Both the position numbers and the translations under genes were made by a program. The notes below the pieces were generated by a model. The model made no database searches and had not been told where the DNA came from. It saw only the letters and a program-made list of their open reading frames with translations. A stretch of 54,654 nt of DNA, filler included, from Dimargaris cristalligena (taxonomy: Eukaryota), in NCBI GenBank assembly GCA_003614675.1. It is 2 parts of 2 records of this genome, joined end to end, with 100 filler letters (N's around TTAATTAATTAA, not from the genome) between each part and the next. Parts side by side here need not be neighbours in the genome. Positions count along the whole stretch, not along the records: positions 27,393 to 54,654 come from ML002521.1; 1 more part is not named here. One strand, given 5' to 3'. Numbering within the stretch: the stretch's first letter is position 1; every line of letters starts with the position of its first letter. Shown piece after piece: positions 24,064 through 44,352 of the stretch.

Positions 24064-24971
24064 GTGTGTGGTTGGGGGTTGATTCATTGGTATTGTAGAC
24101 AGGTCGGCTTGGTAATTAGAGTTGTAGATCCATTGTCAGTGCACATAAACAGTGGTGGCTGATTGATTGAGCCAATACAGTGAAGATCTCTTTTGAATTA
24201 CACCCTCCCCATCCCTATCCTCATCCCTATCCTCATCCCTGTCTCTTCCACTTTGACTCTACAATAGCATATTTCCAACTTCCGGTTAAGGTACGGCGTA
24301 TATTATTGGATCGAACACCCACTAAACAAACTCGGCTCCAATGCTTACAGTGGTTGAAGTATTTGGGGTTTGCATTAAACTTCACCTCTTTTTGTTCCGC
24401 CGAACTTAACTACCCCCTACATCACCGCTGGAGAGGTTAAATGGCCAAGAGTCGGAAAAGCACACCATTTTAAGCCAACGTCATTGACTTAACACGTCTG
24501 TTTATGCGTATATTAATATCCATGCATATGTCTAAATATAGCCCTACTGTATTAGTGATGTATGGGCTCACTTCACTTTCAAACTAAATCATATTTTTGG
24601 GGAGACTTTTCTTTACAAGGATGTGCGAGTTTTTTAGGGACATGCAATAGCTCACGTTGCTCCGAAAAGATACCCGCTGTCAGCCTCTAGCAAAATCTAA
24701 CCCTACAGCCTATTATTACCTTGACAAGTCTCATGTGGGTCTTATTGTTATACATACATAAGCTGTGTATAATATCCGCAATAGGTAAACACCCCCTCTT
24801 TATCCGATGCACATGGTTTACAGTTCATGAGACTAAACCTCATGGAATAATTGGAATGTAGGGAGTTCAACCATGTTGCTCGAGTTTTGATAGTTGGCCT
24901 TGGAGCTCAAGATCCACCCCATTCTTGCCTATCATTTTTAATACCTGAACTTGTAAATTATATTAAATAAA

Positions 24972-25115
24972 CCATATATAAGCGATATTCAACCCACCGG
25001 TATAATTTAGTGAATGAAATGCAACCGATAAAAGTCGGTGGAAATGCATTTTCAACCAACCAATGCTGTTTGATTAACCGGATTTTTCGTTATACGACTA
25101 AACTGAAGTGTCCCT
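24972..25115 (+). mobile_element. Highly decayed copy of the same MITE-like repeat
   Basis: Retains GATATTCAACCC, CATTTTCAACCA and GGATTTTTCGTTATAC blocks at the expected spacing; termini are eroded. Confidence 0.5.
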
Positions 25116-26305
25116 CTCCCGCATCCAAGCCTAAGTTGTTGAGGGGTTCGGCTCCAAATACCGCTACATATGGATAGCTGACCACATAGTTACAGCCTGA
25201 GTTATTACTAAGAATCCGTCTGAGGTTTGCTCTATGCCTACCTGTACAGCTATCTGGCCTGCTCACCGGGCTGCCATGCTGGTCACGAAGTATTCAGGGA
25301 CATACTTGCAATTATACGTATTGTATAGCCTGGTCGATTAACTTGATAACAGGCTTTTGTTGTTGGTTGGCCAACTGTTGTGTCCTGAAAGTCAGTATCT
25401 AGCTGAGTAGCATTATCCACTACATCGACTAGGATTGAAGGATTCCCACCTGTTCAAAAGCCACTTTCTTTGGTTGGACAAAGCGGGCATTCTTTTATTT
25501 GGCCGCCGACGTGCTTCACAAGTGAAAGAACACCCAATTCCCGTGGTTGAGCTCCAGTAATTATGCTTGGGCCACTGATCGTCCGGTCACAGGACCCGTG
25601 GTGCCCACTTCTAAGACGTGGCCCTACATCTCCCCCCTCTCCTCTCCGCTCGTTCGCCCTACTGCCCGGAAAGATGTTGTACGTATTATGGAAGGGGCGG
25701 GACAACAACAGGTCAGTTTATCAACCAAACACAGACCCTAGTTTAATCCTTTGAACAGGGCTCGCTGCTGTAGTTCTTTGGTGGTACACAATCTTGTCAA
25801 ATTCCTGATGGTCACCCCGGGGCCAATTGGAGAGGTCATAAAGTGATTCCGTACATGAGGCGTCTGCGTATGTCGAATAAACAGTCGGCGCGAGGCATGT
25901 GGATGCGCCAAGTACTTCCAATTGAAAAGCAAGGCATTGGGAGGCTGGCAATCAGTGAGGTTGATTACTATACCGTTGGCCTATTACCGCAATGCTTGCC
26001 CTTGCCAAGCACAATGGAACGGACATACATCCATTCGAGACTCCCCCTTGCCCACCACACCTTCCGTATTTCAGCCTAGCAAGTTGAGGTTTTATTGTTG
26101 CTCGGAATATATAATGGGCTATTAGTTCACACCTTCACACTGTACTTTTAGATCATCCCCCTAATTCCCCGTTAATTCACCGATAGTTCGCCTAATCAGT
26201 TAATATTCAATATAGTCATCTTCCCCCTTGGTCATTCAATTACCATCCCCGTACCACGTAATTCAACCCACATCCCACCTCACATTTTTTAGGATAACCG
26301 ATATC

Positions 26306-26932
26306 ATGAAGACCATCATTGTTTCCGCTTCCCTGCTTTTCGCTTTTGCCGCCACCGCTGCCGCCGAGCTGTCCGCTGACAAATATACCTGTCTGGAAGA
26401 GGCCAAGTGCAACAGCGGTCCTGCGCTCTGCTACTCCGAGTGCTTCGGGATGACCGAGGCCCAGTACAATGAAGTCGATGCTTGCTTTAACGAATGTACC
26501 ACTGACCAGGTCTGCGCCGCCAAATGCGGGGCCCAAGCCAGCGAAATCCTGGGTGCCGACCTAAGCGACGTCCAAAAGGCCCTCAGCGAGATCTACGCTG
26601 CCGATATTGACGCCGCCCAGAGCAGCGCCACGGCCTCCTCCACTGAATCGACCTCGGCGTCCGAATCCGCTTCGGCGTCGACTACCGAGAGTGAGTCTGT
26701 CTCGGATTCAGTATCTGCGTCGGCTTCGACCACTTCGGCTGCTTCCTCGGCCGCCAGCAGTGTCCACTCGACTGCTTCGGCTTCCCGAAGCGCTTCTTCC
26801 TCCTCCAGCCGCCCTTCGTCGGGCGATTCGGATGAGCCGGAGGAGGATGAATCCTCCAGTGCCTCGACCATCGGTGCCTTTACTGGCTCCGTGGCCCTGG
26901 CTGCCGTGGCCGTCGCTCGCTTCAACTTCTAA
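26306..26932 (+). CDS. Secreted 8-Cys, Ser/Thr-rich, probable GPI-anchored surface protein, paralog 3 (208 aa)
   Basis: Signal peptide MKTIIVSASLLFAFAATAAA, ELSADK start shared with paralog 1, 8 Cys, S/T stalk and C-terminus GAFTGSVALAAVAVARFNF; TATA at ~26107. Confidence 0.9.
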   Translation: MKTIIVSASLLFAFAATAAAELSADKYTCLEEAKCNSGPALCYSECFGMTEAQYNEVDACFNECTTDQVCAAKCGAQASEILGADLSDVQKALSEIYAADIDAAQSSATASSTESTSASESASASTTESESVSDSVSASASTTSAASSAASSVHSTASASRSASSSSSRPSSGDSDEPEEDESSSASTIGAFTGSVALAAVAVARFNF

Positions 26933-27292
26933 ACGGGTACGTGTGTGTGTTTCACCATGTCCCTCCTTAGTGCCTTTGCGTTGATTTGAGGGATATTTCA
27001 AGCTAACTGGATTTAATTTCTTAAGTCTTTTTTTCTTATATATCCCTGTCCCAACCCTTGTTTTTAATGTTTGCGATCATCAATGCCGTAATGTAGGCTA
27101 ATTTATCATCCATTTGTTAATGTTATACAGTCCATCTGGTTAGATATTACTTTTTTTTTGGCCCCACCCCCCGCATTTCAATAAATACCCCATCTAATTT
27201 TAAAAATGCCACTCGTTGAGTGAATGAATAAAAGGGCCGAAGCCTTCCAATTTTTCATGGTTTCACTTTGCCCCCTTCCCCCAAAAGTGGAC

Positions 27293-27392
27293 NNNNNNNN
27301 NNNNNNNNNNNNNNNNNNNNNNNNNNNNNNNNNNNNTTAATTAATTAANNNNNNNNNNNNNNNNNNNNNNNNNNNNNNNNNNNNNNNNNNNN
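27293..27392. other. Artificial contig linker (44 N + TTAATTAATTAA + 44 N)
   Basis: Exactly 100 bp and symmetric. TTAATTAATTAA places stops in all six frames and is a standard contig-joining spacer. Confidence 0.95.
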
Positions 27393-29585
27393 ATATTGGA
27401 TGACTAAGCAGAGGGAAAGGGAAGGGAGTTCCCAGATAATAGTATTAACCATCACAAAGGATAGGTAATACTTGGGTAACTAATAAATTCAATATGAAAT
27501 AATAGAAGGGAAAAAAAGAAAGGGAGAAAGCTATTATTAGATATTCTTTGAACAGGGGTGCAGTTGGGCTAGGGGTAGTGTGAATGCAGGGGTATGGTCT
27601 GGTCAGGGGCAGGGGTGCATCACAGTCAAGGGTATAAACTATAATAATAGGAAAAACTATATAATAATGAAAATAGAGGGAAAATGACTATACTCATCAG
27701 GGGCAGGGGCTCATTCACTCGTCAGGGGCATATTTCCGATAAGTGCGAAAAATGGATTAAAAATAAAAGTAAGTAAAAAATGTGGTAAGTTCACCACAAC
27801 TCCTATTTACAGCCCTGTACCATGCTGCCGCAAATAATACACCACTATTTTCCTCACCAACCATACCATATACCATTGAGCTGATGGCCCAAGCAACCAG
27901 CTACCTACTCTTTTTCTAGACCACCCCCCTCCCCCCTTCATTGACTTCACTATCATAGCAATGCACTACTAGGTCCACCCACCATTGTTGGTAAAATATT
28001 AAAGCTCACTTATTTGCTCCAGGTTGGTTTAGGAGTAACAGGGGCTTCTATTAATGTTGGTACACATTGAAAGCAGTGTGTAGAATCTAGCAATGGCAAG
28101 TCAAGCCTAAGTACTGTAGGGTTTGGCATCAATACTCATGGGGTACACCTTTGGCTGCAGAAAGTTATATAATAATGATTGTTTTCTAGTTCATTATCAT
28201 CAGCAATTGTAGACCAGTTATTATTACAATATAGCCCAAAAGCCTACCTTGGCCAAACAAGGTGCCTTCATCAGACTATAGAGGTATTCAAGTACTCAAA
28301 TAGATATATTCTCAATTATTCACTATGGCAGATTTAAGTGATATTTGCCTAGACCCAATTGTTGGAAATATTATGGGTGTCAATAAAACTGGGCAAAAGG
28401 GAAGAAAGCAGCTAGAGGACAGTAGGCATCTTTAGGTAGTTAGTTTTATTGGGTAGTGTAGTCAATAGGGGACATTTTGGGTGATTAAAATGGGAGGACA
28501 TATGGTAATAAAATAAACTAATGTAATTGGCCAAAAAACAGGGGGGAATAATAGACCCTTTGGGATATAATTTTCAACAGCTAGCAGGTTAAACGATGAT
28601 TTGGGCTTGAAGATATTAAACAAAAGGGTGAGGGGCCCAAGAGTTCCTCGATTTTCACCCTTGGCTGAAAACTTACCATTTCCTAGCCCGTCGGAACAAC
28701 GGGGTGTATATATGCTAAGGAGGGCATTACATCGGCAAACTTCGAATTTGCCTCTTCTGGCCGTACTCGTTATTCGGATAACATAGTCAAATAACTATAT
28801 TCATAAGCGGGTAATTAGAAAAGGGGATGTAATTAAAAGGCAAATGATAAGATCAACGGGTACTTTTATTAATGATGCAATTTACATGGTATATATTTTG
28901 GCTGTGGCTGTATTCGATGCGTTTTCCGTTGATAATGGCGTCGTGACGGGCAAAGGAATCAACTAGTGAACGTACCTTTTTATATTCTTGCATTATACAG
29001 CATTTTACTCATAAAATAGCTATACTTTCTTATGCTGCGCGTTGGGGGGGGCTAAAATCCTGTGACTGCTGCACACTCCCTTCCGAAATATAAATTGCAT
29101 AATAACATTTGAATTCATTAGTAGCATATTTCACACAGTATCCGACAAAGCTCGTGTACTAGGGGGATGGGCCAAAATACGCAATAGTTTTATCGTCAAC
29201 GTGGATCCATGCTAAAATAACTATGGTGCCAATACAAAGTATTATTAATAGGATTTAAGCTAATCAGACTATATTAAATCGTGAAAATACGGCTATTTAT
29301 AGTATTGGCCCTGCAACTCACTCAAAAAATTAATAAAAGCTCCACCCGCCACCGTGTGGGTTTTCGGTGGATACTTGAAGGTTGTAAAATAATACCGGGG
29401 GCAACCGCCCGTGATTTAACGAACACACCAGTCATTTGGTTGATGGGCGAGTATGGCATTGGGACTGGTCCATTACTATCTTCCAGAATAAGGCTAGCGC
29501 CACCCAGCTTTTTAAATATGCCATTAAGCGTGCTTACACGAAAATTGATACCCCACAATATAACAATCCAAGAGCCATATGGTCA

Positions 29586-32330
29586 TCAAAGGGTTAGTAA
29601 CGCTCTACAAAAATTAAGGGCTCGCAACTGCCGAACTTCATTGGACATTTGGCGGATATTAAAAATGTTGAGGTTCGGCTGGCCATCCGTGTATTTCAAA
29701 GTCCCCGAATTAGTGTCCTGCGCATCTTCCTCCGTAGGTGATTCCACTCGGCTCTCTAGATTGGTCCTGGACCATGATGGACCACCGGAGGTGTCTTTAT
29801 CCTTTACCCACCGGGCCATTACTTGTGGCCATAGCAGCATCAGCCGTTGGCCGGTTTCATAAGTGTTGGTGTCCGGGGCAAATCGGACTATTAGTCGAAA
29901 GAGACTCTGGGCTAAGCGGCTCTGAAAAGTGTCCAGGATGAGCCAATAGGTATAGGCTAAATGAGGGCGTCCGAAACCCTTCTTGGCAATGGACCAGCTC
30001 GACAGTGAAGTAACCGGGATCGTATGCCCGAGGGCCGCCAACACGTTGTTTAAAGGAACCATATGCGATGTAAGATTGCCCATTATGTGGAGAAGATAAT
30101 GGTCAATCACGCTGGAGTGCCCCGGCAATGGGTCGTAAGCGGGTAGGGGAAGACGAATGGCTATACCAGACTTGAGGGAGGCTCGGTACTGGCGGGTAGT
30201 GGCCTCCAGGCTATACGTGTCCAAGGGAGTCAGTATCAGGGTATGCCCATCAATTCCTCCACCAGAGTCCGGCATATCAACGGAATTAGAGTTCGTCCGG
30301 TATTTCCCTATGCGGAGGCGTTTCTCACCATGAGACTGTCTGCCCGGAGCGATGGGTTGCAAGGCCTACCCCGATAAAAACAATAAATTTCCTTAATATT
30401 AGAGTTAGTAGCCGCCACAATACCCCACCCGAATGAATGCCTAATGCCATCAGGGGTTGAAAGTAATATACCTGGTACCCTTGTACTGGCATATTGACCG
30501 GGTTAGGGCACTCATGAACTAGACCTTTATAAATAAATCACTTACTGTAGCCCATTCGTGGCTGGGAACTAACAGGGAACCCCAAGGGGATCCTTTTTCC
30601 GCACCGAGGAGTTCGTCAAACATTTGCCGAATATCCGCTATGAAATTAGTACGAGAATATGGGAAGATGGTCTGATGTGACCGGAGCCACCGGTGAATAG
30701 CGAACCACCATGCCAATCGGTCGGAGCTTGCTCCCAATTGCGCCTGGTTAGGATACGGTTTGGCCCAGTGGTTGGCAGTGACGATACGGGAAATCACCCC
30801 AAAATAATTAGCCATCAGGTCTAACAGAGCGCGTAAGTCGTCACTTTCCCAGTGGCCTTCGGTGTAGCTTTCCAGTAAGCCGGTCAACGGGTCGGCGCTG
30901 GTCAGCAAATCGACAAAAAACCGGTAACTCGTACACTCCACTGTAAGGGTTCGTGTGGGCTCGGGCGACGTTGGGGGGATGTGAAGCCAGTGGTGTTGAG
31001 CACAAGGCAGGCGAATCCGAATTTGGGTGGGGGTGAAGGCCACTGCCGAAGAACGGGGTTTCCGTACGGCCGTCATTTTGGACAAAATATCCATAACCAC
31101 TAGTATGGCGCGGTACTCAAATGGGGTGGGGGCTAGGGCACCAATGGACTGGGGCATGGGTTCCGGTTTGGGATAGACCGGTAGGCAGCGGGAGTAGGCC
31201 AGTCGTGCGGCTTGGTAAACGATCCGTGGCATGGTGAAAAACGCCGTCAAGGGGTAACCAACTAGGATATATAATAAACTCCATCCGTCCAAGCGGTAGC
31301 CGTGACCAGTTACGGAGGCCATAAATTTACGGTAGCGCCCGTCATCATTAGCTAACATATCCGGTACGTTGGCATTGTCATTGGCATCATGGAGCTGAAA
31401 TTTGCGATCCGCATTGAGCTGGTCAAAGAACGTGATACAAATAGCCAAATAGGCCGGGGAGTCGAAACAAGTGGAGATGCGATACTGACCCAGTCGATTA
31501 TTAAAGGGTGAAACATGAAAAAGCCGGTCTGTGGTAAAGCTGCCCGTGGTACACGAGGTCCCCTTTGGTTTCTTCGAACCCTGAGCTGGAGGAGTTGATG
31601 AATCCACAGGAAGTTCGTGGATGTACAAGTGCTTTTCGCCAAAAGTATTATTTACTTCCAGGACAATAAATCGCAGAGTTTGCTGAATTTCTGGAGACGG
31701 GTTAGAGAGACGTAGGTCGCCGGCGAGAACGGAGCGGCGGTAGCAAAAGTGGAATGAAACCGGATTGAAGGCGTACCCCAGGAAACGCGGCGTAGTCACC
31801 AGCTCGGCGTGGTTAATGTCGTCGACGTTGGCGAACCCATGTTGCCGCAGCTGGTGGCGAAGCTTGACCAGGAAGGAAGAAGGCACGCCCATTGCTGAGG
31901 GTGGACTGGCTGAGTCTTTCGCCGACTCGGTAGGTCCTGGCCCCAGGTAATCGCGGTTCCAAACGGAAAATAGTGCCCGGTTATTGTATCGAAATACCGG
32001 GAGCGTACCCCACCCACTATGGCGAGTAGTGCATGGTTCCGCTATCCCCCCATCCATTTCCTCTGATGCCACCTTGAAGTAAAAGAGGGGGTATCGAAAT
32101 CTATGTTTGACGGGGAAGTAGCGCATGTGCTGTGTGTTCACCAAATAGATACCTGGCTTGGTCCGATCCAGTCCTTCGAGGGACACCAGTTCTCGAAACA
32201 GAAGGCTCCTTAACACAAGGTAAGTGGCCAAGATAAGTGCCACCGCCCCTAGGCCATACTGCCATGGAACATGGGTGAAGGTAAGGTGTCCAATTTTCGA
32301 TTGGAAAAGCATTTCCATAAGATAATTCAT
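29586..32330 (-). CDS. DUF1365-family protein with an N-terminal TM anchor, fused to a degenerate CFA-synthase-like region; exons 32330-30546 and 30365-29586 (~854 aa)
   Basis: DUF1365 motifs HMRYFPVKHRFRYP, FSVWNRDY, TTPRFLGYAFNPVSFHFCY, LEVNNTFGEKHLY, FHVSPF and PRIVYQAARL. These are followed by TLTVECTSYRFFVDLL..DPLTGLLESYTEGHWESDDLRALLDL, which resembles the CFA-synthase N-terminal domain. A phase-0 intron (GTAAGT...TACTAAC...TAG) joins the next ORF. Confidence 0.82.
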
Positions 32331-35300
32331 TCTCAAAAACAAAGTCGAGCTACTGTAATGTTGATAATGGAGGTCCGATAATGAATGCAAATGTCTTGTT
32401 GTCGAACTGCTATAAAGGACTAAAGCGACGATAGGGAATAATGGGGCGAAGGGTGGAGCTTACAGGACATACGGGCCAATCGGTCGAACAACGTATTGAA
32501 ATAGTAATGAAGGGGCGCAGACTTGGGTTTTGCGCGTGTTGCCATTGATTAGCCAGGGGACTGTCTAACACAATGGCGAATTGTTTTGGATGTAGTAGGT
32601 ATTAAGTATACTTATTTATCGAGCAGAAATAGATATAGCGGATCTCTAAGAGGGGATACCGCCCAATCGAATCGGGTTTGATTAGTTACGTTTTAGATAG
32701 ACACTAGCAACTCGGGGGGAGGACGGTGGACAGGACTATTGAAGAAGGGGTAGCGGAAGGAGAGGGCGACGACCTCCGCGCATTACTCCCAGTCATTTGA
32801 TTTCTGCAGTGACCACACTGAACATGCAGCGTAGCTGTGTGTATATGTGGTGCACGGAAAATCGAACAGTGAATCGGTAGCATATCGGGGGTCGCTGGAA
32901 CAGCGTACATGAAGACTCAGAAATCATGTCGATGTTTAATAGATGGTACCATTGTAACTCTTCGTCCGAATGATCGCCCTGGATGCAGTAACCACGTAAT
33001 GGTTCCTCTGCCAAATAGCGGATAAGTGGCGAACTGTGTATAGTGTCGTTAATAAGTATTCTGCCGTGAGAATTGCATTGACACAAGGGCCAACCCCCCC
33101 TTCTCAGCCGACAATATGACTATCGAAGGGATGGTGGAAGACAGCACCTATATTGACCCTAACTCTTCAATTAATCCTAAAATAGGTTTCGAAGCGTCTG
33201 GTTGAATATGCTGGATTGCATTGGTCTACCAGGGCATCTCAAGTTCGATATCGCTTTACAATGTAGTGATAGACGATACATTATCGTGTGTAGAGACGCT
33301 AACAGGTTCAGACACCGGCCCATCTCTAATACTTTCACAATTCCGCCAAGCCGTTGAATAAGTGATGGCTATATTCGCCGAGGCCCTGTATTGGCAGTGT
33401 GCAATAGCAGGTATAATCTGAAATGGGCAACTTCAGACTATATTGCGCCTAGATAATTACTATGCTAAAACTATAATTTATCATGCGAGTTCGGCTAATC
33501 GCTTAACGCGAGGGTTCGAGTTGTCAGCCTTGTGTGTGTGTGTAAGTAATATCAGGGCAGTATTATTGACCGGACACTTATAAATGCCCATTTTACATTA
33601 TATAGAGTAGCTGGAACCTCGACGATTCGTCGTGCAACGCTTCTAGTGCAGTTGGATATCATACTTGATACGCTATCGATGGATCACTATGTATAAAGTT
33701 ATGATTATTTCGTGAGTGAAGTAGGAGGTTATAATGGTGTTACCGATGGCAAGTAGCCAGGATAAGATTGAATACCTAAGGGGGTGAGCCGTGGACATCA
33801 AAAAATGTGGGAACTTGGGGATATTACCTTGATCTGCATGGGTATTTGAAATGGGAGTAGGTTATGTGTAGACTATCGGGCTTTATTCCAAGGGTCGTCA
33901 AAGCTGATTATTGGTACAAGCGATAGAAAGCGAAAAAAATGATATCCAGTAGTTAGCGATCAACTCCATTTCAGTGGCAAAAATTAGGGGGAGCTCCTAT
34001 CACATTCTTATAGACAAAGCCCCTTTAACGATTTTATAAACACTAGACACATTAAATACCACGCTGTTGGCAGATTGGCCTAGTCAATAGAGCTCAATAT
34101 ACATATATTCCCGTAAAATATAAACAGATGTCGTTTGATTGGCACACTGGCCTAGTGTCAATGGTGGTGGTAAAATCCCACCGAAGTACGATTTATCTAT
34201 TATTTTTTTGCTGAATACCATTATACAGTCTTTGATCGTTAGCATCAAACCCCAGGTTCTTAAAATCGGTTATAAGAATGATGACCGGGTTTTCCTAAAT
34301 CTGAGATATATTTGTAGTTTATTTGAGCTACTGGAACAAACATATTAACGTAGAATTCATCGTGGCTAGGTGCACCCTATTAGATAAGAGAAATTCCCCT
34401 GTCAAGTCGTAATTTGGTAAAATCCCGAACCAAACGGCAGCCCTATTGTGATTGATTTTATCTCAATGGTGTATGTACAATGCCAATGGTATGCCAAAGT
34501 GACCTGGAGAATATTGCAGTTGCAATACAGCCCCAGTGGCATGTAATATGCTATTAAGGCGATGTCAAGCAGCAGGAAAAGTACGGAAGAGATCGAAGAG
34601 GCCCTCAGCTAGTTATTGCCACTAATACAAGGAGGTATATTCCGATGTTCAACATGGGCACATGGTACTGTGGCCACTTGATACTCATCGAATCGGGAAC
34701 AAGGGTGATGTGTTAATCATGTAACGTCAAGTCCTCCTGGTTGCAATTTCTCGATTAGCGTAATGCGCCGTATGGCAACCGGAGGAGGCCGCCCCACCAC
34801 TCAGAGGTGAGATGTCCATCTCCCCCGTAGCACTCCTAACCCAAATGAGGGAGATCCCCAGGATTAAGATATGGTCCGTGTGACCCTCTCGCTGGAAGAG
34901 AAGACGTAATTACCCCAATAGCACAAGAACGACTCCTCACCTCCGAGGAATAAAACATACCGCCCTGGGCGGTCGACTATTGCCCGTTGTCTTTTGAAAT
35001 AATAATTCTTATTTCATATAATTCGATCTAGGTATTATTTAGGTATCTGCCCCCCCGGTACTTTAGTTATCTTTTTACAGTTATTCGGCCTCACTCGATT
35101 TGTTCAGTCACAGTAGGTACCGTAATGGGAGCATCACACCCATCATTTCTCTCGCGTTCCCCAATAATTATTATGTAGGCGTATTTAACAAGGCGGTTAA
35201 CTGCGCCAGTATAGCATGGGTGGTGTGTCAGCTTTCTGCGTCGTGGGTTCAATCGCAGTGCCTGGGCTTGAGCTACCATCGGCTGATTAGAAAAGCCCAG

Positions 35301-35408
35301 TCGACACACTGTACCTGTCGCCTGGCAGCTTCAGGGGGAAGACTGACGAGGATACTTTAACCACCTCATTTCCGAGTAGCATCCGATGCCAGACTTATCT
35401 ATAGGGGC

Positions 35409-35687
35409 TTATATAAATCCAGGCCAGCTCCTCGTTTTATTCCCGGTTCGCTATTAACTTGCGTTTGCTGTTTTTTCCCCCGATTGCGACATCATTAGTT
35501 CTTACTTGAGGTCTATTTAAAACGTACCATAATTTTTTGTGTTTTTCTTACTCGATACACCTCGACATTAGCGCACACGACGTACAAGTAAGTGTTAACT
35601 AATGAAGGGAATTGGACCGGCCGGTTCACTGACACCGATTAGGGTATTGTGGCCAATCTCCAGCAACATTTACTAACTTGCTATTAG
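35409..35687 (+). promoter_or_regulatory. TATA box (~35409-35418) and probable 5'-UTR intron (35588-35687) of the CFA-family methyltransferase gene
   Basis: TTATATAAAT; GTAAGT at 35588, TACTAAC at 35671-35677 and TAG at 35685-35687, all upstream of ATG 35719. Confidence 0.55.
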
Positions 35688-35718
35688 GTCCATCGGGGCC
35701 TATCATTTTGATACAGAT

Positions 35719-38097
35719 ATGAATCCATCCTCGTCAGCGGTTCCCAATTCGCTTCTTGCCCATATCGCCAACACCTTGCGGTCCGCCAAGGATTCGGCCT
35801 TAAAAGGGCTGTGGCCAGTTCTGATTGGTTTCTGTAAGTACTTGTCCCCGTCTCAGGGAATATATATCTCGATTTGTAGTATGGTCTCTTTCCCGAATTG
35901 GCAATATCCTCACCAGACAGATTGGTTGAGAACCACGATCTACCAAAGACCACAACGCCTGGTCCCCATATCCAAGCTTATTGATCAACTTTTTTAGGGG
36001 GGGGGGATAGTGTAGTAGGCATTGGGTTAGTTGGTCAAAGAGACCAGCTAGTCTGGAAAGTGGCTTATGCATCCGTCTTTTGAGGAAATTGCTCGAACAG
36101 TCGGCCCGCACTTACTATCATCCCATTCAAAGGAATCCATGAATAATTGACTATTGCCCAAATTCCGGCGTGCAATACGTTAGTTATTTATGGGTCATAC
36201 CTTTAGAGGCTCAATTCTCACCCGTCCTTTCCCAGTGCTATTGGGCTGCTCTGCAGTTCGCCGCATGGAGGTCTTTATTACCCATTCTGCCAACTACGCC
36301 TCATTATTACACCCTCTAATTAGTATTTTTATTGTGAGGTATTCGTTGTTCGATATAGGCAAAAGTAATGTGCTCGGCATTCTGGCGAAGATCCTCGTGG
36401 GTCAGTTGGAAATTGTGACCGATGAAGGCATCCACTCCTTTGGCAGTCCCAGTAGTAACCTTAAGCCAGTCAAGATCCGAGTACTAAGCGATACCTTCTG
36501 GGTTCGCCTTGTCTTGCGGTCCGACCTGGTATGTTGAGTTTTCTTTTTAAAAATTAGATGCAACTGACCAAAATGATGCTGATATTTCTCAATTCAATCC
36601 GTTTGGGTATGAATACGGCCTCCATCCGTTATGTATGCCTAACTAGCTGTTTTTGGCCGAGATTTTCTTACCAATTGCCTCGGTGTATTATTAGGGATTT
36701 TCCGAGGCGTACATGAAACGTGAAATCGAAGTCAGCGACCTGGTTGGGTTTATCAAGGTAAGTCAGCCAATAGAGACCGCCCCGCTTTCTAACTCACCGG
36801 TCGAAGACAGACCCGTAACCTTCTTTGTCAAATGGTTTAATATACAGCCGCATTTAATGTTTAGTCCTTCGCCTCTATCTCTAATATTTTTTTTCGACCC
36901 AGTTATTCCTTAATAACCGGGAATCTCTCAGCGATGGTAGTAACCAATACGCAATCGTATTCAACAGCCTCGATGTGTTGATGCACTCCCGCTTGGCCAA
37001 CACTATCAACAACGCCGTTAACAACATCAGCGCCCACTACGACCTGGGTAATGACATGTTTGCCGAGTTTCTGGACCCCACCATGACTTATTCGTCTGCC
37101 ATTTGGCGCAACCCTGAGGATTCGTTAGAAATGGCACAGATCAACAAATTAACCATGGTGATTGAAAAGGCCCGCATTGTAGAAGGCGACCATGTGTTAG
37201 AAATCGGTACCGGCTGGGGATCATTAGCCATTTTGGTAAGTACGAGCTATTATAATGTAGCGGATCATGCCATGCTATCTCCTCCCGAGGAAAACCGTCA
37301 TCGCCGATGTGTATTGTGTAAACTGCTTAAGAGTGGACAGGAAAGCTTGGTTGATTCAGTGAGACTATGCATTACTCTGAACCAATTCCTATCCACTTGA
37401 CCTGTAGGCAGTCCAGAGAACGGGTTGCCGAGTAACCAGCTTAACACTCAGTAGCGAACAGAAACAACTGGCCGAAGAACGAGTCGCCAAGGCCGGCTTC
37501 TCGGGCCGGATTACGGTTCTCTTGTGCGATTACCGGAATTTATCGCCCACCGAACACCAATTCGATAAGATTGTGTCCATTGAAATGATCGAGGCCGTGG
37601 GGGCCGATTTCATGCCCACCTACTTCAACTGCTGCCACCAACTGCTGCATCCGCACCACGGCGTGTTTGTGCTCCAGGGCATCACCATGCCCGAATCCCG
37701 CTATCCGCGGTACCGCAAGGGGGTTGATTTTATCCGCAAGTACATTTTCCCCGGCGGGGAATGTCCGACCGTTACTTCGTTGGTGGAAGCGGCCCAGGTG
37801 GGTTCGGACGGGGGCCACTTGGTCCTCGATCATTTGGAGAACTTCCCGTTGGATTACGCCCGCACTCTCCGTGAGTGGCGCCACCGGTTTCTCCAGAATT
37901 ACGACAGTCAGATTGCTTCGCATTCCCCGCTTAACGACCAAGGTGCACCCATCTACGACGGTGAATTCAAACGCAAGTGGGAGTACTACTTTGCCTATTG
38001 TGAGGGGGCGTATGCCACCCGTACATTGGGATTGGTCCAAATGGTTTTTACCCGGATGGCCAACGCTCGCCTATTGGACAGTCGTAGTGGCTACTAA
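35719..38097 (+). CDS. Cyclopropane-fatty-acyl-phospholipid synthase family SAM-dependent methyltransferase (CMAS domain); exons 35719-35833, 36359-36528, 36695-36757, 36903-37235, 37408-38097 (456 aa)
   Basis: SDL|GFSEAYM, NISAHYDLGNDMFAEFLDPTMTYSSA, SAM motif VLEIGTGWG, SLTLSSEQ, CDYR, FDKIVSIEMIEAVG, DFIRKYIFPGG, YARTLREW and KWEYYFAYCEGAY. Canonical splice sites give a continuous 1371-nt frame. Confidence 0.93.
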
Positions 38098-40781
38098 TAG
38101 TTGGGGTACGGGGTTATAATTAGCCCCAACTCGGGGCCAGCTGGGTCCGAAGGGGGGCCCTGGTCACATCGCATAGTTGACTGAATGAGTCCGGTTGGAA
38201 AATACCGGTTCTCAAAAGGCTCACGCAAGTTGTCTGTGGCTTATTTATGGTATCAAGTCAATAAACCAGGACTTTACCACTAATATAACACATAATTTGA
38301 GAGCAACGAATGCGCCTAGGTTGTACCAGGCCATTTGACATTGACTTGCCCCTTTTAAGCAGAACCATACATATATTTAATATTTTTAAATATTATCATC
38401 GCACTTGGCCCATTCTCTCGGTATATTATCTAGCATTCACCTCCTTTCCACCCCCATCCCAGATGGAGGGGGCGTGTCCTAACCTGCACCAACATGGTAA
38501 ACCACGTGAATGGCGTATTACAGCTATAAACTGGCGGAGAACCAAGGTGAGAGTTTTCGTCACGATAGAAAAAGTGGTATGCATGCTCTACCCTCTAACA
38601 CTAAACCCACCCCAATAAGAGGTTACATCAACATTTTAACAAGTGCACCTTATAAGGCTGTTCAGCAATAAATATTTAATTATCACAATAAAAAGAAGAG
38701 TTCTGAAATAAAGTTCACCCGACCTTTTTATGTCAGTATATAGTCCTAGTAGTGAGGAACAAGAGGTCTCTGCAACACTTGATCCCAAAACAGCATAATG
38801 GTTATTTACCTAAGGATATGGCCGGTGGGAAAACACTAGTTTCATACATAATGCCCGATTGGAATAGCATAGAAAGCGCTCACTATATACACTTTTTTCC
38901 TCTGACCGCCATCAAGATTTACATTTCAAAGTAACTACCAAAAGGATCCGAATGAAAATATACCCTTATAACTCGCGAATACCTTATTCGGGCCATGCAC
39001 TATCACTATGATTTATTCACGTTGTCTGATTACTGGGCGGTATTACCACCACCATTAAAAAACATCATGATGACCATGGCATTTCACGGACCATTCCTAT
39101 TGCTCTATATGGGGGGATCGGTCAAGTAATGCTGAGTTTCAGAAGGGTTCTTAAATCATTAGCTAGCTCCGAAGGAGGAGGAATACCCATTGGTTTGGAT
39201 CTTAAATACAAATAGGTCTAAAAAACAAAAAAAAAAAACACTGTATTAGCCCAGCTAAAAGGCATATTCCCGGTTTATACTTGCTACTTTATAGATTACA
39301 GATATCGTTCCTAGCATACTGGTGGTTAGATCAAATCTGGGAAGTGGAATGTTTCAAAAATACAATTCAGGTGGGGCTTCAACAATGGTCGCCCAAGAAA
39401 AATAGACGTAAGCCATACGACTTTGAATACAAGTGCTGATATTAGGAAGCTGAGGGTATGGCAGAAGGGGGCTTAAAACCCCGCCAGAGTGGAGAGCACT
39501 ATGAAGGATGGATAAGAGAGCGGGTATTGGATTGTTCTAACAATTGGCCATAACCAAGCGTGAGGGTTAGTACCAGTTGGCTTATTAGTGGATAGTACAC
39601 ACGACAATTCCGATGATATGACCGGGATCCCTAGATTATCAGCAGAACCTTGGGTCGCGGTGCCCATCTACTTAGCGATGGCTCCTAGATACATTGCAAC
39701 CAAGGGTGATGCACGTAGTTCAACTTCATGGTCCTCTGGCGGGGGTACCCAATGCGTCGATTAGTATACTTATCAGAGTAACATTCCCTAATGTCTACCT
39801 GAGCCCCGTATTGGCACCCCCTCTCACAACAATATTCCCCTGCAGACCGTCAACACAGGTTTAGTACATTTCTACCCAATGGACTAGAGTGCGACTCTTA
39901 AGCAACTAATGATTGTGACAGGGTATCTCTCTCGGGCTGGTATTCAAAGCTCTTGGGCGGTAAACAATGCCACGATTGTGGGCATCAATCCTAACTGGGA
40001 GTATAGATGCAACCTCTAACCAATTAGAGCCGGTAACCAATAGCAAAACCAATGAGCCCTTATGGCGGATTTGACTCGTTCTATCCAGTTAACCACTGGT
40101 GGGCGGTTTATGTCCTAGCCAAATCTCTCCCTATCGTATCCGTCGTGATTTGTACTGAATATTCGTCATTGCGGAGAGTCCTCTCGTAGTAGGACTACTG
40201 GTAGTATATATTATCTACTAGACTGTTTTGACAAGGGCAGCAGTAGCACGTATATCCTGCTTCTCTGGCCCATGCTGAAAAGGACTCGTATCTCGAACCA
40301 CGTAGATATTGTACACTCATTAGGCGACGCATGGGTTATAGCGGGATAGAACAGGGAAGCGCCATGGCCATAGATACTTAACAGGCAATAAAACCAAAAT
40401 CCCAGAATTTTCTTCCCACTCTGAACCACTGCTTATAAATCGAAGTCTAATCCATCACTCCCAGCCAAACGCCCGGCCCTGTGTGTCTCATTTGCGGTTT
40501 CCGCCTGTAAACCCACTACTACTGACTTTCGTACTCACGTCACTTTCCCATTGCTACCCGACAGACCCCCCCTCCTTTATTCCCCGCTATTTACTGCTGA
40601 CCAACCCATTCTGCATCCGTTCTTTCTTTCTTGACATACCCGCACAATACTATTCATCCATACTGCTGATTTCTACCTTTGTCGGTTGGGGTTCTTCACG
40701 CTACAAGCGAGACTCCATTGGTACACTACCACCACTACCCAGCCGTTACCCCCACTCCCCATAGTACCATTACACGCCATC

Positions 40782-41942
40782 ATGATACGCATTCGCACTT
40801 CAGAAGGCATGGAGCTAGAAGTTGAGCGCGAAATTATGGAGCAGTCGATGCTCATCAAAGGCCTTCTAGAAGACGTAGGCCATTCGAATGCCGGTAGGTT
40901 GGTTTAGGCTTATTCTAATCCAAGTACACCTCTCCCCCATCCCGGTGGTCTGTTCCCGTAACAAATAGCAGGAGCGAACCCAATGCAGCAGAGCATATAG
41001 ACTTCATTGCAGCATGCCTCCCCGCCCCTTTTGTAACCCTACTGACTAAAACTCTGCCCCACGATACAACATCAACCTCTCCCACACCTTGGCATTTCCC
41101 CTCTACTAATCCCAACAGTCCTACCCCTGCCCAATGTGAGCGGCCCCATCCTGGCCAAAGTCATCGAATACTGCCGCCACCACCAGCTGCATAACCGCCG
41201 CCCGGCGGGCCCGAGCGGTAGTACCCCGGACGGGACCGTCGGTTCCGTTCGGGACGACGATGAGGGCGTCAGCCAAGATGGGGGCGATTCACGCATGTCG
41301 GGCACTACTATTCCTGCGGGTGGCGCAGGCCCCGACCCCATTCGCGTCACCTTTGCTCCGCCCTCATCGACGGTTACGGTAGCCAATAGTGCACGCGTCA
41401 CGGCGTTCACGACCACCAGGGCCCCACCCGCCAATATTTATCCCGTTCACGAGACCCCAGCGGACCTGTCGACCAGTACATTGACAGCGTCGGCCGCTAT
41501 GGGACCCCAGCCGGCTCGCCAGACCATCACCCTCGGGGATTGGGATCGCGAGTTTTGTAACGTGGACCAAGGTGCCCTGTACGAACTGATCTTGGCGGCT
41601 AATTACTTGGATATTAAACCCCTGCTGGATCTGACCTGCCTAACTGTGGCCAATATGATTAAAGGTAAGTTACTTTAGAATTTTAGAAAAGCAGAACTAT
41701 ACTCGTAATGAGTATACGGTACTTCTCAGCCCAGCACATTGTGTATTACAAATCACCGATTGCTGAGTGCGATGTTTGATATATAGATTAACCCTAAAGC
41801 TGCATATTGCCTCTCAACACCATCCGATTTGACAGGGAAAATGCCCGATGAAATTCGCCGGACATTCAACGTAAAGAATGATTTCACCCCCGAAGAGGAA
41901 GAGGCGGTGCGGAAGGAAAACGAATGGTGTGAGGACCGCTAA
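40782..41942 (+). CDS. SKP1: Skp1 family SCF adaptor with a long internal insertion; exons 40782-40893, 41119-41664, 41836-41942 (254 aa)
   Basis: [87 protein letters not shown] and [29 protein letters not shown]. Confidence 0.95.
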
Positions 41943-42130
41943 ACTACTCTACCGGGTATACCGAAATGTGTCATACATTGTTAACCCAGGGCCATATGCT
42001 ATGTAGCCCGCCCTACTTATATCTAAATCACCACTATAGTCCTCCTGATACTCTCATTTCATCCCCCAATCCGAATGTCCAATATACCCTAAATTAACCA
42101 GTCTTCAGTGTTTCTGGCCAATGAATTAAA

Positions 42131-42273
42131 ATGGGTGATATTCGACCCAGCTGTATAGGGATTTAAATGACAAGTGTACGAGAAAATGAGTGGGTGGTTC
42201 ATTTTCAGCCAGTAATATTGGCCTCATCCAACGGATTTTTCACTATACAGCCTGAATGAACTTCTCCCATATG
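42131..42273 (+). mobile_element. MITE-like dispersed repeat, copy 4
   Basis: atGGGTGATATTCGACCCAGCTGTATAGGG ... GGATTTTTCACTATACAGCC ... GAACTTCTCCCatatg; lies ~190 bp downstream of the SKP1 stop. Confidence 0.85.
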
Positions 42274-44312
42274 ATGGTAGAAGACGCACAAAAGAATGAT
42301 TCACATCGCTAGAAACTGGTGACGGCCGCTTGGCTTGAGTCAGTAACCTCTTCATGATTCTCCGAGTTCCTGAGTTACCGATTTAAAAACGGAACTCGAA
42401 TTACAAGGTAGTCCAATTAAATCCCCTACTATACTTAAGATGAAACAGCTTGAATGGAAACCTATCATTTGGATGAACTTTTTGCAATCTTCCAAATCGG
42501 GCGAGGGGTTCAATTGAGGTTCGTCAACCTTGGCCAAAACCAAAAATATGGCCTCATAAAGTTAAGGTGTAGAGGGTTTTCCATAACTTACCCACCCTGC
42601 CTAAGAACAGTGCCCAACCAAAGCATGTAAATCCACACGCGTTTCACCACGATGGGCAGGCATTTGATCAAAGAATCTTGCCCATGCCCTCGTATTTCAA
42701 TCAGCCATGTTGGTCCATTATTCCCATAAACACCTATTTTTTCACATGAGGCTATGGGGCGCTATCGGCATTGATTTCCAAACTACAGTAAGGCATCTGG
42801 GGGGAAAAGTGTGGGGGACATGATTTCCCTAACCTTTTTTTCTTATAACCAAATTACATTCCCTGGTTTCCTGACGCCCCCAACTTTTCTTAAAAAAACT
42901 TGTTGATCAACCTTTTGTTATGGTTTGGTTGGAAAAATTTAGCCCCCGGACTTTCACATTGGTTGGCCCATGCGTATCAGACATTTACTCGGTATTATAA
43001 AGTACGCTTGGTTTCGGGGCTAATTAGCTTTTAGTTGGGGTAAAGTGATGGACTCTAATGACCAGTCAGATGCAACTCCCAATTTGGTTGAATAGGCCGG
43101 GAGGAGGTGAGGGGGGGCGGTCGATTTTGGGCGCCTATAATTACATGGTTTTTTAATTATTCGGCCCTAACTAAGGCTGCCCTCCTCCCCTCAAACTCCA
43201 TCATTGAATAATATGTCTTAGCAGTGTTTAAACGACTCAACTATTAGACATACTATTTTACATTAATCAAAGTTAACCAATTGGGACAGATTAAACTCGG
43301 TTGGTAAAGAAGAATAGAGGCTGGATGAGAAGCGCACCACCTTCCGTTTTGTTATTCAGTGAAACAGGATATTATTATCTGCAATAATTACCTGAATTGA
43401 ATAAGGCTGGTCCAGTGGCATCCAAGAAACCAAGTCCAATTACGGTGTTCATTAGCTCAGTCCCCTCTTGCGGATGAATTCGTACACCTAATGATCATAT
43501 ATGTACATATATATTTGTTTGTTTACTCTTGCTAAATTATATCATTTTTCTTATTACCCAGCATTAAAGTTGTAAGTCCTGGCCATTTGACCGCGGGGGA
43601 TCGACGGACACTCCTTGACCTGATGTTTACCCCAACCAATACTACAAAAATACCCATGCGGCTGAAACCTAATACAAACCGTCTGCCCCAACCCATTGTT
43701 TTCTAATCGAGTATTATCTTAAGATAACCTCTTTGGCGTTACGGGAAGAAGTCGATGAGGGAATGTCGCTTCAAACCCCTCCAAAAACATAACCTATATT
43801 TATATACGACTTTATTCAATTCCCAATTCCACTTATGGTTCACCTTTGGTTGGATGATTCGCCCATTTCTATTTTAACGGCACGATTTGCCTGTCTGGTC
43901 CGTTAACTATAGGCGTGCAATTTTATTTGGCATTCCCTAGCATGACCAAACTACCACCAACGAGCGCCCTGGTCGGTTTGTTTTGATTTAACTAGAACCG
44001 TCGGCGATTGGCTCGCCCCATCTGTTTATTTATTTTACTTACACCATAACATCTTGTTCTACCCTCCCCCCCTCTTTTGGTCCCACCACACCTCTATCCA
44101 CTGTTTTACTTGACACATTCCACTGGAGCCGGGGTGGAACACCCACACTCCCCCGGGAGCCTATGTTAAATTAAACCGAACCTCCATATAGTAGTACACT
44201 TGGCTTAATCCAATACTCTAGAATGATTACGTTAAGAAGGAGTGTATCCGTGTGGTCTGGGGGGAGGGGGGGTTTCTTACAGTCGGACACCCAAAGTGAC
44301 TGTTCAACCGTA

Positions 44313-44315
<3 letters not shown>

Positions 44316-44352
<37 letters not shown>
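44316..44352. repeat. (TA)n microsatellite
   Basis: Uninterrupted TA run; shorter runs occur near 5207-5225, 5911-5930 and 48402-48426. Confidence 0.9.

Follow-up and report, generated by a model that had tools for sequence, protein, structure and literature searches.

A DUF1365 gene on the minus strand (29586-32330, two exons) and a CMAS-family methyltransferase gene on the plus strand (35719-38097, five exons) lie head to head in the fungus Dimargaris cristalligena, and we put the probability at roughly 0.55 that the two are native fungal descendants of a bacterial FAD oxidase/DUF1365/CMAS (UfaD/UfaO/UfaM-type) fatty-acyl module, most likely still serving the same lipid. The two genes are probably coupled in function in the fungus. 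All coordinates are positions in the window, the whole 54,654-nt stretch of DNA that was analysed (Table 1).

Table 1. Features of the DUF1365-CMAS pair, in window coordinates.
Feature	Position	Strand	Basis
DUF1365 exon 2, 259 codons + stop (29586-29588), C-terminal extension	29586..30365	-	open frame, without Pfam family
DUF1365 intron, predicted, 180 nt	30366..30545	-	GTAAGT 30545-30540, TACTAAC branch site 30410-30404, T-rich tract, AG 30367-30366
DUF1365 exon 1, 595 codons, ATG at 32330	30546..32330	-	continuous open frame and Pfam match
CFA-synthase N-terminal (SCP2-like) domain look-alike, residues ~393-520	30771..31154	-	hhalign, profile, structure
DUF1365 domain, modelled beta-barrel	31158..32150	-	Pfam 1-235 of 235; barrel at model residues 55-348
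N-terminal hydrophobic helix, residues 23-50	32181..32264	-	AlphaFold model
Divergent intergenic region, 3,388 bp	32331..35718	.	Pfam/tRNA/Rfam null; GC drop
CMAS gene exon 1	35719..35833	+	exon chain
CMAS gene exon 2, N-terminal lipid-binding domain	36359..36528	+	exon chain
CMAS gene exon 3	36695..36757	+	exon chain
CMAS gene exon 4, CMAS domain start, SAM-binding motif VLEIGTGWG	36903..37235	+	Pfam 3.4e-27; motif in P0121
CMAS gene exon 5, remainder of CMAS domain, stop 38095-38097	37408..38097	+	Pfam 7.6e-42

The start codons of the two genes stand 3,388 bp apart, and the outermost positions of the pair, 29586 and 38097, fall exactly on their stop codons. Inspection of the interval between them revealed no further gene: none of its 21 frames of at least 50 aa reached the Pfam cut-off, and a tRNA search and an Rfam search likewise found nothing there, confirming the first-pass annotation of a divergent pair about 3.4 kb apart with nothing between. 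The interval has a GC content of 0.43-0.47, versus 0.52 in the coding parts, and presumably carries the promoter(s) of both genes; a spacer of this size is nothing unusual in the window and does not in itself point to a shared promoter. The pair is flanked by genes of eukaryotic type, for Cut8, Skp1 and a serine carboxypeptidase, and the best database matches of both proteins are Dimargaris cristalligena entries at 100% identity. By an order-of-magnitude estimate, not a computed value, two named genes among several thousand would stand side by side by chance a few times in ten thousand.

On the minus strand, the frame at 30519-32459 matches DUF1365 (PF07103) over profile positions 1-235 of 235, with an E-value of 1.8e-51 and 175.5 bits against a Pfam cut-off of 25 bits. 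The splice, predicted from the DNA, joins this frame to a second exon that drew no match in a Pfam search and that encodes an F..A.F...P....R-type motif common to other fungal DUF1365 proteins (alignment A1). The annotated model, P0001, aligns to 29802-30212 at 99% identity; a fungal homologue, P0002, aligns from its own residue 11, at 32270, down to 30804, which favours the long N-terminus over P0001, where it is skipped. Because P0001 finishes on an extra small exon, the 3' end of the gene is uncertain. The modelled hydrophobic helix within the N-terminus is likely a membrane anchor, and fungal homologues have comparable hydrophobic N-termini (alignment A1). The barrel model shows weak fold matches (Z 6.2-6.7) to nitrobindin, fatty-acid-binding-like and bilin-lyase barrels, and the Dimargaris protein keeps every invariant or near-invariant residue of the family, including His68, His76, His234, His272, Glu232 and Arg369 (alignment A2).

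Examination of the segment that follows the DUF1365 domain uncovered a look-alike of the N-terminal domain of CFA synthases. Comparison by hhalign of 42 such fungal segments with an alignment of CMAS N-domains gave a probability of 96.3% (E 1.5e-9, 100 columns); the sole match of the A1 profile among PDB sequences was E. coli CFA synthase (6bqc_A, residues 35-134, E 0.011); and the best structural match of the modelled domain was again 6bqc_A (Z 7.7, with SCP2 at Z 6.3). No methyltransferase catalytic domain comes after it. This relic points to an origin of the fungal protein from a fused DUF1365-CMAS form, and both it and the putative N-terminal membrane helix are new here.

The plus-strand gene encodes an intact methyltransferase, as had been proposed. 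Frames at 36885-37400 and 37408-38097 match CMAS (PF02353) with E-values of 3.4e-27 and 7.6e-42, the four introns start with GTAAGT or GTATGT and end in AG, and the spliced product equals database protein P0121 exactly. Its CMAS domain retains the SAM motif together with residues equivalent to Glu239 and Tyr317 of E. coli. The enzyme shares fold and two-domain layout with E. coli Cfa (PDB 6bqc), its best solved-structure match (E 1.5e-48), but it scores 246 bits on the NCBIfam Cfa equivalog model, below the cut-off of 400, and it differs at two residues, His266 of E. coli being Gln throughout the clade and Cys139 being Ser in Dimargaris.

Of 173 rows, made up of the top 150 representatives for the fungal methyltransferase and some added sequences, 52 are DUF1365-CMAS and 12 FAD-oxidase-CMAS fusions. 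In the trees, which took in neither UfaM (RSP2144, RPA2569) nor cotton GhCPS1 and GhCPS2, the fungal clade (SH-aLRT 100) joins its sister group, the plant and red-algal enzymes fused to an FAD oxidase, along with an amoebozoan clade (93), and the eukaryotes as a group branch from within the bacterial enzymes fused to DUF1365, a placement that is new here. E. coli Cfa lies outside the clade in both trees, so that, judged by sequence, the fungal enzyme belongs to the lineage tied to DUF1365 and FAD oxidase and not to the Cfa type. The Dimargaris DUF1365 and CMAS proteins each fall in a clade of solely fungal-type sequences, which, taken with the introns in both genes, indicates that they are native and genuinely eukaryotic, as first thought, and not contamination.

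The bacterial loci that we surveyed were picked because their DUF1365 genes are those nearest to the fungal one, and they are therefore not a random sample of bacteria. In them, 60 of 77 DUF1365 host ORFs from genomes are fused to CMAS, a single open frame holds both domains in 61 of 80 metagenome loci, and 51 of 64 upstream ORFs are of amine-oxidase type. FAD oxidase, DUF1365 and CMAS are neighbours in operons there, and the grouping of the three in bacteria that was stated at the outset is thus strong.

Conservation of the linkage among fungi held up only in part. Of five species with usable contig data, two have the genes linked, namely Dimargaris and Calcarisporiella, where both lie on one 1.24 Mb contig (locus tags 11292 and 11294); the genes are on different contigs in the close relative Dispira, in Gigaspora rosea and in Fimicolochytrium, and no CMAS gene lies close to DUF1365 on any of the three fungus-like metagenome contigs that were informative (L136, L140, L156). 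As initially observed, the window contains no detectable UfaD-like gene (best tblastn E 0.03, best profile E 0.35), and a limited protein search returned no named fungal protein among the best 120 matches to the eukaryotic UfaD-type domain. The earlier suggestion that the fungus retains parts of a lipid-modification pathway thus stands for the CMAS lineage and the DUF1365 family; the furan step is so far unsupported, with no UfaD-like gene in the window.

From these features we infer a substrate, a product and a mode of regulation. The methyltransferase would add a one-carbon unit from S-adenosylmethionine to a double bond in a phospholipid acyl chain, giving an alkenyl chain with a methyl branch, or else a cyclopropane. 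The N-terminal helix and the SCP2-like, CFA-synthase-N-type lipid-binding domain would hold the DUF1365 protein at the membrane, and its beta-barrel could take in the modified chain and convert it further, probably in an O2-dependent step as UfaO does. With 3.4 kb of divergent sequence shared between them, the two genes could be regulated jointly. Since the UfaD desaturase step lacks a candidate here, the product may be something other than a furan acid.

A possibility that we take seriously, while giving it the smaller share of belief, is that the two genes are neighbours by coincidence or as the decaying remnant of an older link, the methyltransferase being a stand-alone cyclopropane or methyl-branch synthase of the plant CPS or Coprinopsis Cfs1 type and DUF1365 acting elsewhere. 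The genes are, after all, unlinked in most checkable fungi, members of the CMAS clade are found in many fungi (Coemansia, many Ascomycota) with no DUF1365 among the matches listed, and cotton GhCPS1 deprived of its oxidase domain retains ~30% activity (PMC3132707). RSP1089, a CMAS gene beside ufaO in R. sphaeroides, is moreover not required for furan acids in the account drawn on here (PMC7380195), so neighbourhood is no proof of a shared pathway. Chance sits poorly, however, with the fusion or adjacency of DUF1365 and CMAS in the great majority of related bacterial loci, with an N-domain relic that joins both histories in one protein, with a separation of two locus tags in Calcarisporiella, and with co-induction in Chlamydomonas (PMC4067076). 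Rather doubtful, to our minds, is a pathway to methylated furan fatty acids in which the methyltransferase plays the part of UfaM and DUF1365 that of UfaO, the conjugated diene coming from an unlinked desaturase, whether a homologue of UfaD or some other fungal enzyme. UfaO does contain DUF1365 and builds the furan ring by inserting O2 (Lemke 2020, PMC7380195), which bears out the identity first suggested, and UfaM, UfaD and UfaO suffice for 9M5-FuFA (PMC7380195); eukaryotic homologues of all three are in print, and the authors concerned have already proposed the pathway for eukaryotes (PMC7380195, PMC10940516, in the passages drawn on here). The lineage of the fungal CMAS and the intact family-invariant residues of the DUF1365 protein agree with such a route, but the searches for UfaD described above, whose limited reach falls short of proving absence, do not, and GhCPS1 and GhCPS2, the nearest characterised relatives of the fungal methyltransferase, make cyclopropane acids (PMC3132707), their sister-clade position being inferred from FAD-oxidase-CMAS architecture since the tree was drawn without them. 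Our literature searches found no paper on fungal DUF1365 and nothing useful on furan acids in fungi.

Sphingolipid C9-methyltransferases share a Pfam family with the CMAS methyltransferase, and close homologues of the latter exist in many Ascomycota, so a housekeeping enzyme of glucosylceramide synthesis (Mts1 type) with no tie to DUF1365 might be considered. We find this improbable: the nearest non-fungal relatives, at 40-46% identity, are DUF1365-fused and FAD-oxidase-fused enzymes; none of the 120 best matches bears the C9-methyltransferase name; and the clade has many chytrid members, whereas C9-methyltransferase is described as reduced in flagellated fungi in the part of PMC13161914 drawn on here. 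Both families are mainly bacterial, which could suggest bacterial contamination or very recent horizontal transfer, but this we regard as refuted by the introns, four canonical spliceosomal ones in the CMAS gene and one predicted in the DUF1365 gene; the eukaryotic neighbours and fungal-type clades also speak against it.

Set beside known systems, the proposed descent of the pair from a bacterial fatty-acyl module finds several parallels. The Ufa pathway of Cereibacter (Rhodobacter) sphaeroides and Rhodopseudomonas palustris likewise combines DUF1365 with a CMAS-family, SAM-dependent acyl-chain methyltransferase, and in R. palustris the three Ufa genes adjoin (RPA2569-2571; PMC7380195). The fungal locus, by contrast, has no UfaD-type FAD oxidase; at ~850 aa its DUF1365 protein is longer than UfaO (250 aa) and includes in addition the predicted membrane helix, the CFA-synthase-N-like domain and a long tail; and its genes are divergent, intron-bearing and eukaryotic instead of forming an operon, the likeness to the Ufa pathway being one of protein family. 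Plants, like fungi, keep a separate DUF1365 gene, AtUFAO1 (AT1G30130) accompanying AtUFAMD1 (AT3G23510) in Arabidopsis, where the DUF1365 and fused CMAS proteins are both at lipid droplets (PMC10940516); linkage of the plant genes goes unreported in the portions of the literature drawn on here. Plant CMAS (AtUFAMD1 of Arabidopsis and the cyclopropane synthases of cotton and Sterculia) is fused to an FAD oxidase, a fusion that fungi do not have, and GhCPS3 gave no cyclopropane acids on heterologous expression, nor are any present in Arabidopsis tissues (PMC3132707).

In Chlamydomonas, singlet oxygen induces DUF1365, CFA1, CFA2 and DUF2177 together as part of a SAK1-dependent regulon (Wakao et al., 2014, PMC4067076), which provides eukaryotic evidence that the DUF1365 and CFA families act together, although the tie there is co-expression rather than physical linkage, in a photosynthetic alga. 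Outside the fungi, both proteins are most closely related to the bacterial DUF1365-CMAS fusions (~655 aa, after an amine-oxidase gene). Unlike these, the fungal DUF1365 protein has no catalytic methyltransferase domain, and a complete CMAS gene stands apart on the opposite strand; the order within the fusions, DUF1365 followed by the CFAS N-domain and then the catalytic domain, explains why the fungal DUF1365 protein carries an N-domain relic.

Database searches returned Dimargaris cristalligena proteins at 100% identity as the best matches of both genes, a 671-aa DUF1365 protein (P0001) and a 456-aa methyltransferase of the CFA-synthase (CMAS) family (P0121). The DUF1365 profile PF07103 matches the minus-strand frame 30519-32459 along its entire length (profile positions 1-235 of 235; E 1.8e-51, 175.5 bits where 25 is the cut-off), and PF02353, the 'mycolic acid cyclopropane synthetase' profile, matches the plus-strand frames 36885-37400 (3.4e-27) and 37408-38097 (7.6e-42); P0121 also carries the SAM-binding motif VLEIGTGWG. 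All four methyltransferase introns start with GTAAGT or GTATGT and end in AG. The start codons of the divergent genes have 3,388 bp between them, a spacer in which none of 21 frames reached a Pfam cut-off and in which neither a tRNA nor an Rfam family was detected. The first-pass annotation had described a DUF1365 gene (minus strand) and a linked CMAS-family gene (plus strand) lying head to head with about 3.4 kb and no gene between them; this arrangement is confirmed, outer coordinates included, as are both family assignments in the Pfam check that it had proposed. The pair is real and native to the fungus.

Exon structure of the divergent gene pair, in window positions
Feature	Position	Strand	Basis
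Methyltransferase, five exons	35719-35833, 36359-36528, 36695-36757, 36903-37235, 37408-38097	+	exon chain identical to P0121
DUF1365 exon 1	ATG 32330 to 30546, unbroken, then GTAAGT	-	read from sequence
DUF1365 predicted intron signals	TACTAAC 30410-30404, T-rich tract, AG 30367-30366	-	sequence
DUF1365 exon 2	259-codon frame 30365-29589, stop 29586-29588	-	predicted 3' end

The intron and 3' end of the DUF1365 gene are predictions, which together give a putative protein of about 854 aa. Inspection of window 32018-32330 (minus strand) revealed that the first 37 residues of the annotated protein P0001 (BJ085DRAFT_31464) come from a different frame, and that this model splices past the first conserved DUF1365 strands along with the hydrophobic N-terminus. 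Because the conserved domain start missing from P0001 is aligned by three fungal homologues, we prefer the long N-terminus; the unbroken frame from ATG 32330 suits these homologues better, and the public annotation therefore probably needs correction. Exon chaining on the window did not reproduce P0001, and four residues of the model near the first splice cannot be matched in frame there. We take P0001 to be the weaker model, possibly one built on another assembly.

The cluster is limited to these two genes, with no lipid-related companion in its surroundings. Among 36 other frames of at least 110 aa in the window, the recognisable ones encode VTT-domain, Cut8, serine carboxypeptidase and Skp1 proteins, and among 63 frames of at least 75 aa in 18000-29500 and 38100-49000 Skp1 alone was recognisable. 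Several frames of 222-386 aa lack a Pfam match at E <= 0.001 (47197-48357, plus strand; 21994-22683, both strands; 26216-26932, plus strand; 49774-50670, minus strand) and represent either uncharacterised Dimargaris genes or non-coding frames. The partner that the earlier annotation had reported as not visible, a counterpart of the bacterial FAD-oxidase-type desaturase UfaD, is indeed missing from the window: with 51 bacterial UfaD-like proteins as queries, the best tblastn match there (E 0.03) fell inside the CMAS gene, and a profile of the same 51 proteins reached E 0.35 at best. The window thus holds no match for the UfaD-type desaturase that the three-gene furan module requires. The dinucleotide-binding N-terminal parts of several of these queries align weakly with 5743-5883 on the plus strand (E 0.13-0.8; 32-34% across some 44-47 aa); because the profile search missed this segment, it is probably a chance match, or else a Rossmann-like motif in a gene of another kind. 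Beyond the window, the best 120 of 4,238 matches to the UfaD-type domain of P0374, an oxidase-fused protein, were from plants and bacteria and included no fungal name, many being unnamed, and the ESM Atlas matches listed were bacterial clusters, none of them fungal. Together, the protein and ESM Atlas searches are weak evidence that fungi lack UfaD.

The bacterial furan-acid enzymes were first defined in 2020 by Lemke et al. (PMC7380195), who describe conversion of vaccenate to the furan acid 9M5-FuFA by the methylase UfaM, UfaD and the oxygenase UfaO, with the ring oxygen supplied by O2. They state that UfaO contains DUF1365, bearing out the first-pass annotation on this point, and report that RSP1089, a CMAS gene adjoining ufaO in R. 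sphaeroides, is dispensable (PMC7380195). The use of O2 to turn an acyl chain with a methylated conjugated diene into a furan has been demonstrated for the R. sphaeroides and R. palustris enzymes alone. We sampled 80 genome and 80 metagenome loci chosen for a DUF1365 nearest the fungal one, and hence not a random set of bacteria. A host ORF was found at 77 of the 80 genome loci, and in 60 of these 77 DUF1365 and CMAS form one protein of about 655 aa; 51 of 64 immediate upstream ORFs encode an amine-oxidase/NAD_binding_8 protein of about 425 aa, mostly with a 4-bp overlap with the DUF1365 start. The metagenome loci are similar, with all three families present in 60 of 80 and DUF1365 and CMAS in a single open frame in 61 of 80. 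The claim that DUF1365, CMAS and FAD-oxidase genes are recurrent neighbours in bacteria is therefore correct and, if anything, understated.

Some loci in this sample depart from the common layout. Longer DUF1365-CMAS frames of about 1,070-1,120 aa occur at L024:5989-9291, L032:4696-7965, L086, L114, L120, L121 and L160, and the surplus of about 400 aa may be a third, C-terminal domain or read-through into a neighbouring gene. A different order, with one or two CMAS genes followed by an oxidase and lastly a stand-alone DUF1365 gene of about 270-300 aa, is seen at L106, L109, L130, L133 and L137, and the CMAS proteins encoded downstream at L047 and L048 (about 365 aa) group apart from the main lineage, as a deep clade of their own, in both methyltransferase trees.

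Phylogenetic analysis of DUF1365 places 25 fungal-type sequences in one clade (support 99) among bacterial forms. In an alignment of 64 sequences, the Dimargaris protein retains all 11 invariant columns as well as the near-invariant His68, His76, His234, His272, Glu232 and Arg70. Profile-profile comparison (hhalign) of 42 fungal segments that follow the DUF1365 domain with the CFA-synthase N-terminal domain (CFAS-N) gave a probability of 96.3% and an E of 1.5e-9 over 100 columns, and aligned this segment with residues 24-123 of the methyltransferase. The homology is clear only by this type of comparison: the DUF1365 tail and the methyltransferase gave no match in BLASTP (best E 3.0), and a CMAS N-domain profile produced single weak matches in fungal DUF1365 proteins (E 0.004-0.1), collinear in many of them. 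The sole PDB sequence match of the DUF1365 alignment used for that search, which contains one bacterial protein with a CFAS-N-like tail, was to residues 35-134 of E. coli CFA synthase (E 0.011).

In structural comparison of an AlphaFold model of the DUF1365 protein (pLDDT 77.7, pTM 0.79), CFA synthases rank first, those of E. coli (Z 7.7) and Lactobacillus (Z 7.0) matching model residues ~406-603, and SCP2 lipid-carrier proteins match residues 403-514 (Z 6.3). For the DUF1365 core (residues 55-348) the model shows a beta-barrel whose best matches, all weak, are nitrobindin/THAP4, Rv2717c, OlmO (a spirocyclase) and bilin lyases (Z 6.2-6.7); Foldseek found nothing in the PDB at E <= 0.001, the best match being nitrobindin 2a13 (E 0.013). 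Because all VIA-align Z values lie below 8, where chance arrangements are not yet rare, these fold assignments serve as leads only, and as such the barrel matches would be consistent with a ligand-enclosing barrel. To our knowledge, UfaO has no known cofactor or structure. A preprint places DUF1365 among families computationally predicted to bind haem. The protein thus carries, in order, a likely membrane helix, the DUF1365 barrel, a domain of the CFAS-N/SCP2 type and a tail specific to fungi. This arrangement is most simply accounted for by descent from a bacterial DUF1365-CMAS fusion that lost its catalytic domain, with the function now supplied by a separate CMAS gene; it is the CFAS-N relic that points to an origin from the fused enzyme.

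An exhaustive search with the methyltransferase P0121 returned 12,576 representatives at E <= 0.001, beginning with about a dozen fungal-type clusters and continuing with proteins of ~660 aa aligned over their C-terminal two thirds; 52 DUF1365-CMAS and 12 FAD-oxidase-CMAS fusions were present among 173 rows (the best 150 plus extras). In a FastTree phylogeny of 164 rows, the fungal sequences form one clade (100) whose sister (97) comprises 17 rows, 11 of them oxidase-fused. An IQ-TREE analysis (quick search, LG+G4, 69-row subset) likewise recovers the fungal clade (100), unites it with the oxidase-fused sequences and a three-row clade (93), and nests this group among bacterial DUF1365-fused and operon enzymes, leaving E. 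coli Cfa and a further bacterial type outside (100). Named members of the oxidase-fused clade come from Arachis, Pteridium and the red algae Porphyridium and Rhodochaete, together with the entry 'Clim_evm17s134', and the three-row clade includes the dictyostelid Tieghemostelium. Against NF008686, the NCBIfam equivalog of E. coli Cfa, P0121 scores 246.3 bits where the cut-off is 400, and E. coli Cfa is an outgroup in both trees; we therefore reject orthology with Cfa. The tree placement and this score thus assign the fungal methyltransferase to a branch, spread across eukaryotes, of that CMAS lineage which is tied to DUF1365 and UfaD.

A family likeness might instead point to a sphingolipid C9-methyltransferase (Mts1/MT1/MT2). 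None of the best 120 matches of P0121 bears that name, however, and the P0121 clade is common in chytrids, where PMC13161914 reports the C9-methyltransferase to be reduced. On these comparisons, such an identity appears unlikely. The five residues of the bicarbonate site of E. coli Cfa (Cys139, Glu239, His266, Ile268 and Tyr317, their identities checked on the E. coli sequence) correspond in the Dimargaris enzyme to Ser, Glu, Gln, Ile and Tyr, and Gln at position 266 is common to 19 of 19 fungal, 52 of 52 DUF1365-fused and 11 of 12 oxidase-fused sequences. Since the oxidase-fused type includes plant enzymes that make cyclopropanes, residue 266 does not separate the two chemistries. Cotton GhCPS1 and GhCPS2, which have the oxidase-CMAS architecture, produced cyclopropane acids in yeast, while heterologous expression of GhCPS3 yielded none; cyclopropane acids were likewise absent from Arabidopsis tissues and from an Agrobacterium oxidase and CMAS pair (PMC3132707). 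From their architecture, the GhCPS sequences being outside our trees, we infer that the cotton enzymes belong in the oxidase-fused sister clade, and both outcomes, cyclopropane and non-cyclopropane, seem to occur among close relatives. The chemistry of the fungal methyltransferase is thus not readable from its sequence.

Contig sizes and locus tags in the database records of P0001 and P0121 matches, covering five species, place both proteins on a 27,262-bp contig in another Dimargaris assembly and on the same 1,236,294-bp contig of Calcarisporiella thermophila (tags 11294 and 11292), and on contigs of different size in Dispira parvispora, Gigaspora rosea and Fimicolochytrium jonesii. Synteny in fungi, which the first-pass annotation had proposed as a check, thus holds in two of five species and fails in the other three. 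Five of the metagenome loci look eukaryotic, of which two (L094 and L148) are too short to inform; none of the remaining three (L136, L140 and L156; 5-14 kb each) has a CMAS or UfaD gene, and L140 carries HET, oxysterol-binding and kinase genes. With two of five species linked and no CMAS gene on the three informative metagenome contigs, linkage is patchy, reflecting either an ancestral state that is eroding or re-clustering on repeated occasions. The adjacency could be incidental and the methyltransferase a stand-alone cyclopropane or methyl-branch synthase, a rival reading that we hold to be unlikely. A cyclopropane synthase beside an unrelated gene would make this a case of ordinary annotation.

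The fungal pair belongs to a known, bacterial-type module for lipid modification inherited by eukaryotes, and our preferred reading is that the two genes are functionally coupled, to which we assign a probability of roughly 0.55. That a furan fatty acid is specifically the product of the pair is a good deal more doubtful and, on balance, improbable. More speculative still, and very doubtful when taken as a whole, is the idea that early-diverging fungi make oxygenated fatty acids with methyl branches, possibly furan acids, by a two-gene route free of UfaD, with DUF1365 as a membrane-anchored docking oxygenase. In such a route, the beta-barrel would act as an oxygenase dependent on haem or a metal, the membrane of the ER or of lipid droplets would anchor the protein, and its relic CFAS N-domain would dock at the bilayer patch of the methyltransferase or onto the methyltransferase itself, recreating the bacterial fusion enzyme in trans. 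Were this so, the smallest set of eukaryotic genes for such chemistry would be that of Dimargaris, and it would offer direct access to the origin of eukaryotic furan fatty acids. The compact pair is easily tested, and a test would tell a furan from a cyclopropane or other acyl product and establish whether UfaD is dispensable.

Homologues of UfaO and UfaM in eukaryotes have already been suggested in print. What is new here is modest but concrete, namely the linkage in the fungus, the placement beside plant and algal fused enzymes, and the CFAS-N relic and likely membrane anchor of the DUF1365 protein, the relic suggesting a way in which the two proteins, though separate, might still come together at the membrane. 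Among literature mentioning DUF1365 we found none on fungi, and a search for furan fatty acids in fungi returned nothing relevant; furan acids have been reported analytically in mushrooms. The CMAS-family protein Cfs1 of Coprinopsis is required for fruiting initiation and reportedly shows strong induction one hour following blue-light exposure (PMC10282164), an induction that echoes the light and singlet-oxygen control of bacterial and algal homologues. In Arabidopsis, a DUF1365 protein and an oxidase-CMAS fusion both localize to lipid droplets, and their names, AtUFAO1 and AtUFAMD1, were given by homology alone (PMC10940516). Singlet oxygen induces a DUF1365 gene of Chlamydomonas together with CFA1, CFA2 and a DUF2177 gene, in each case in a SAK1-dependent manner (PMC4067076). 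At the bacterial locus L034 (78-1805), a UfaD-like oxidase is fused with a DUF2177 membrane domain, so that DUF2177, co-induced in the alga and oxidase-fused in the bacterium, may be an additional member of the module.
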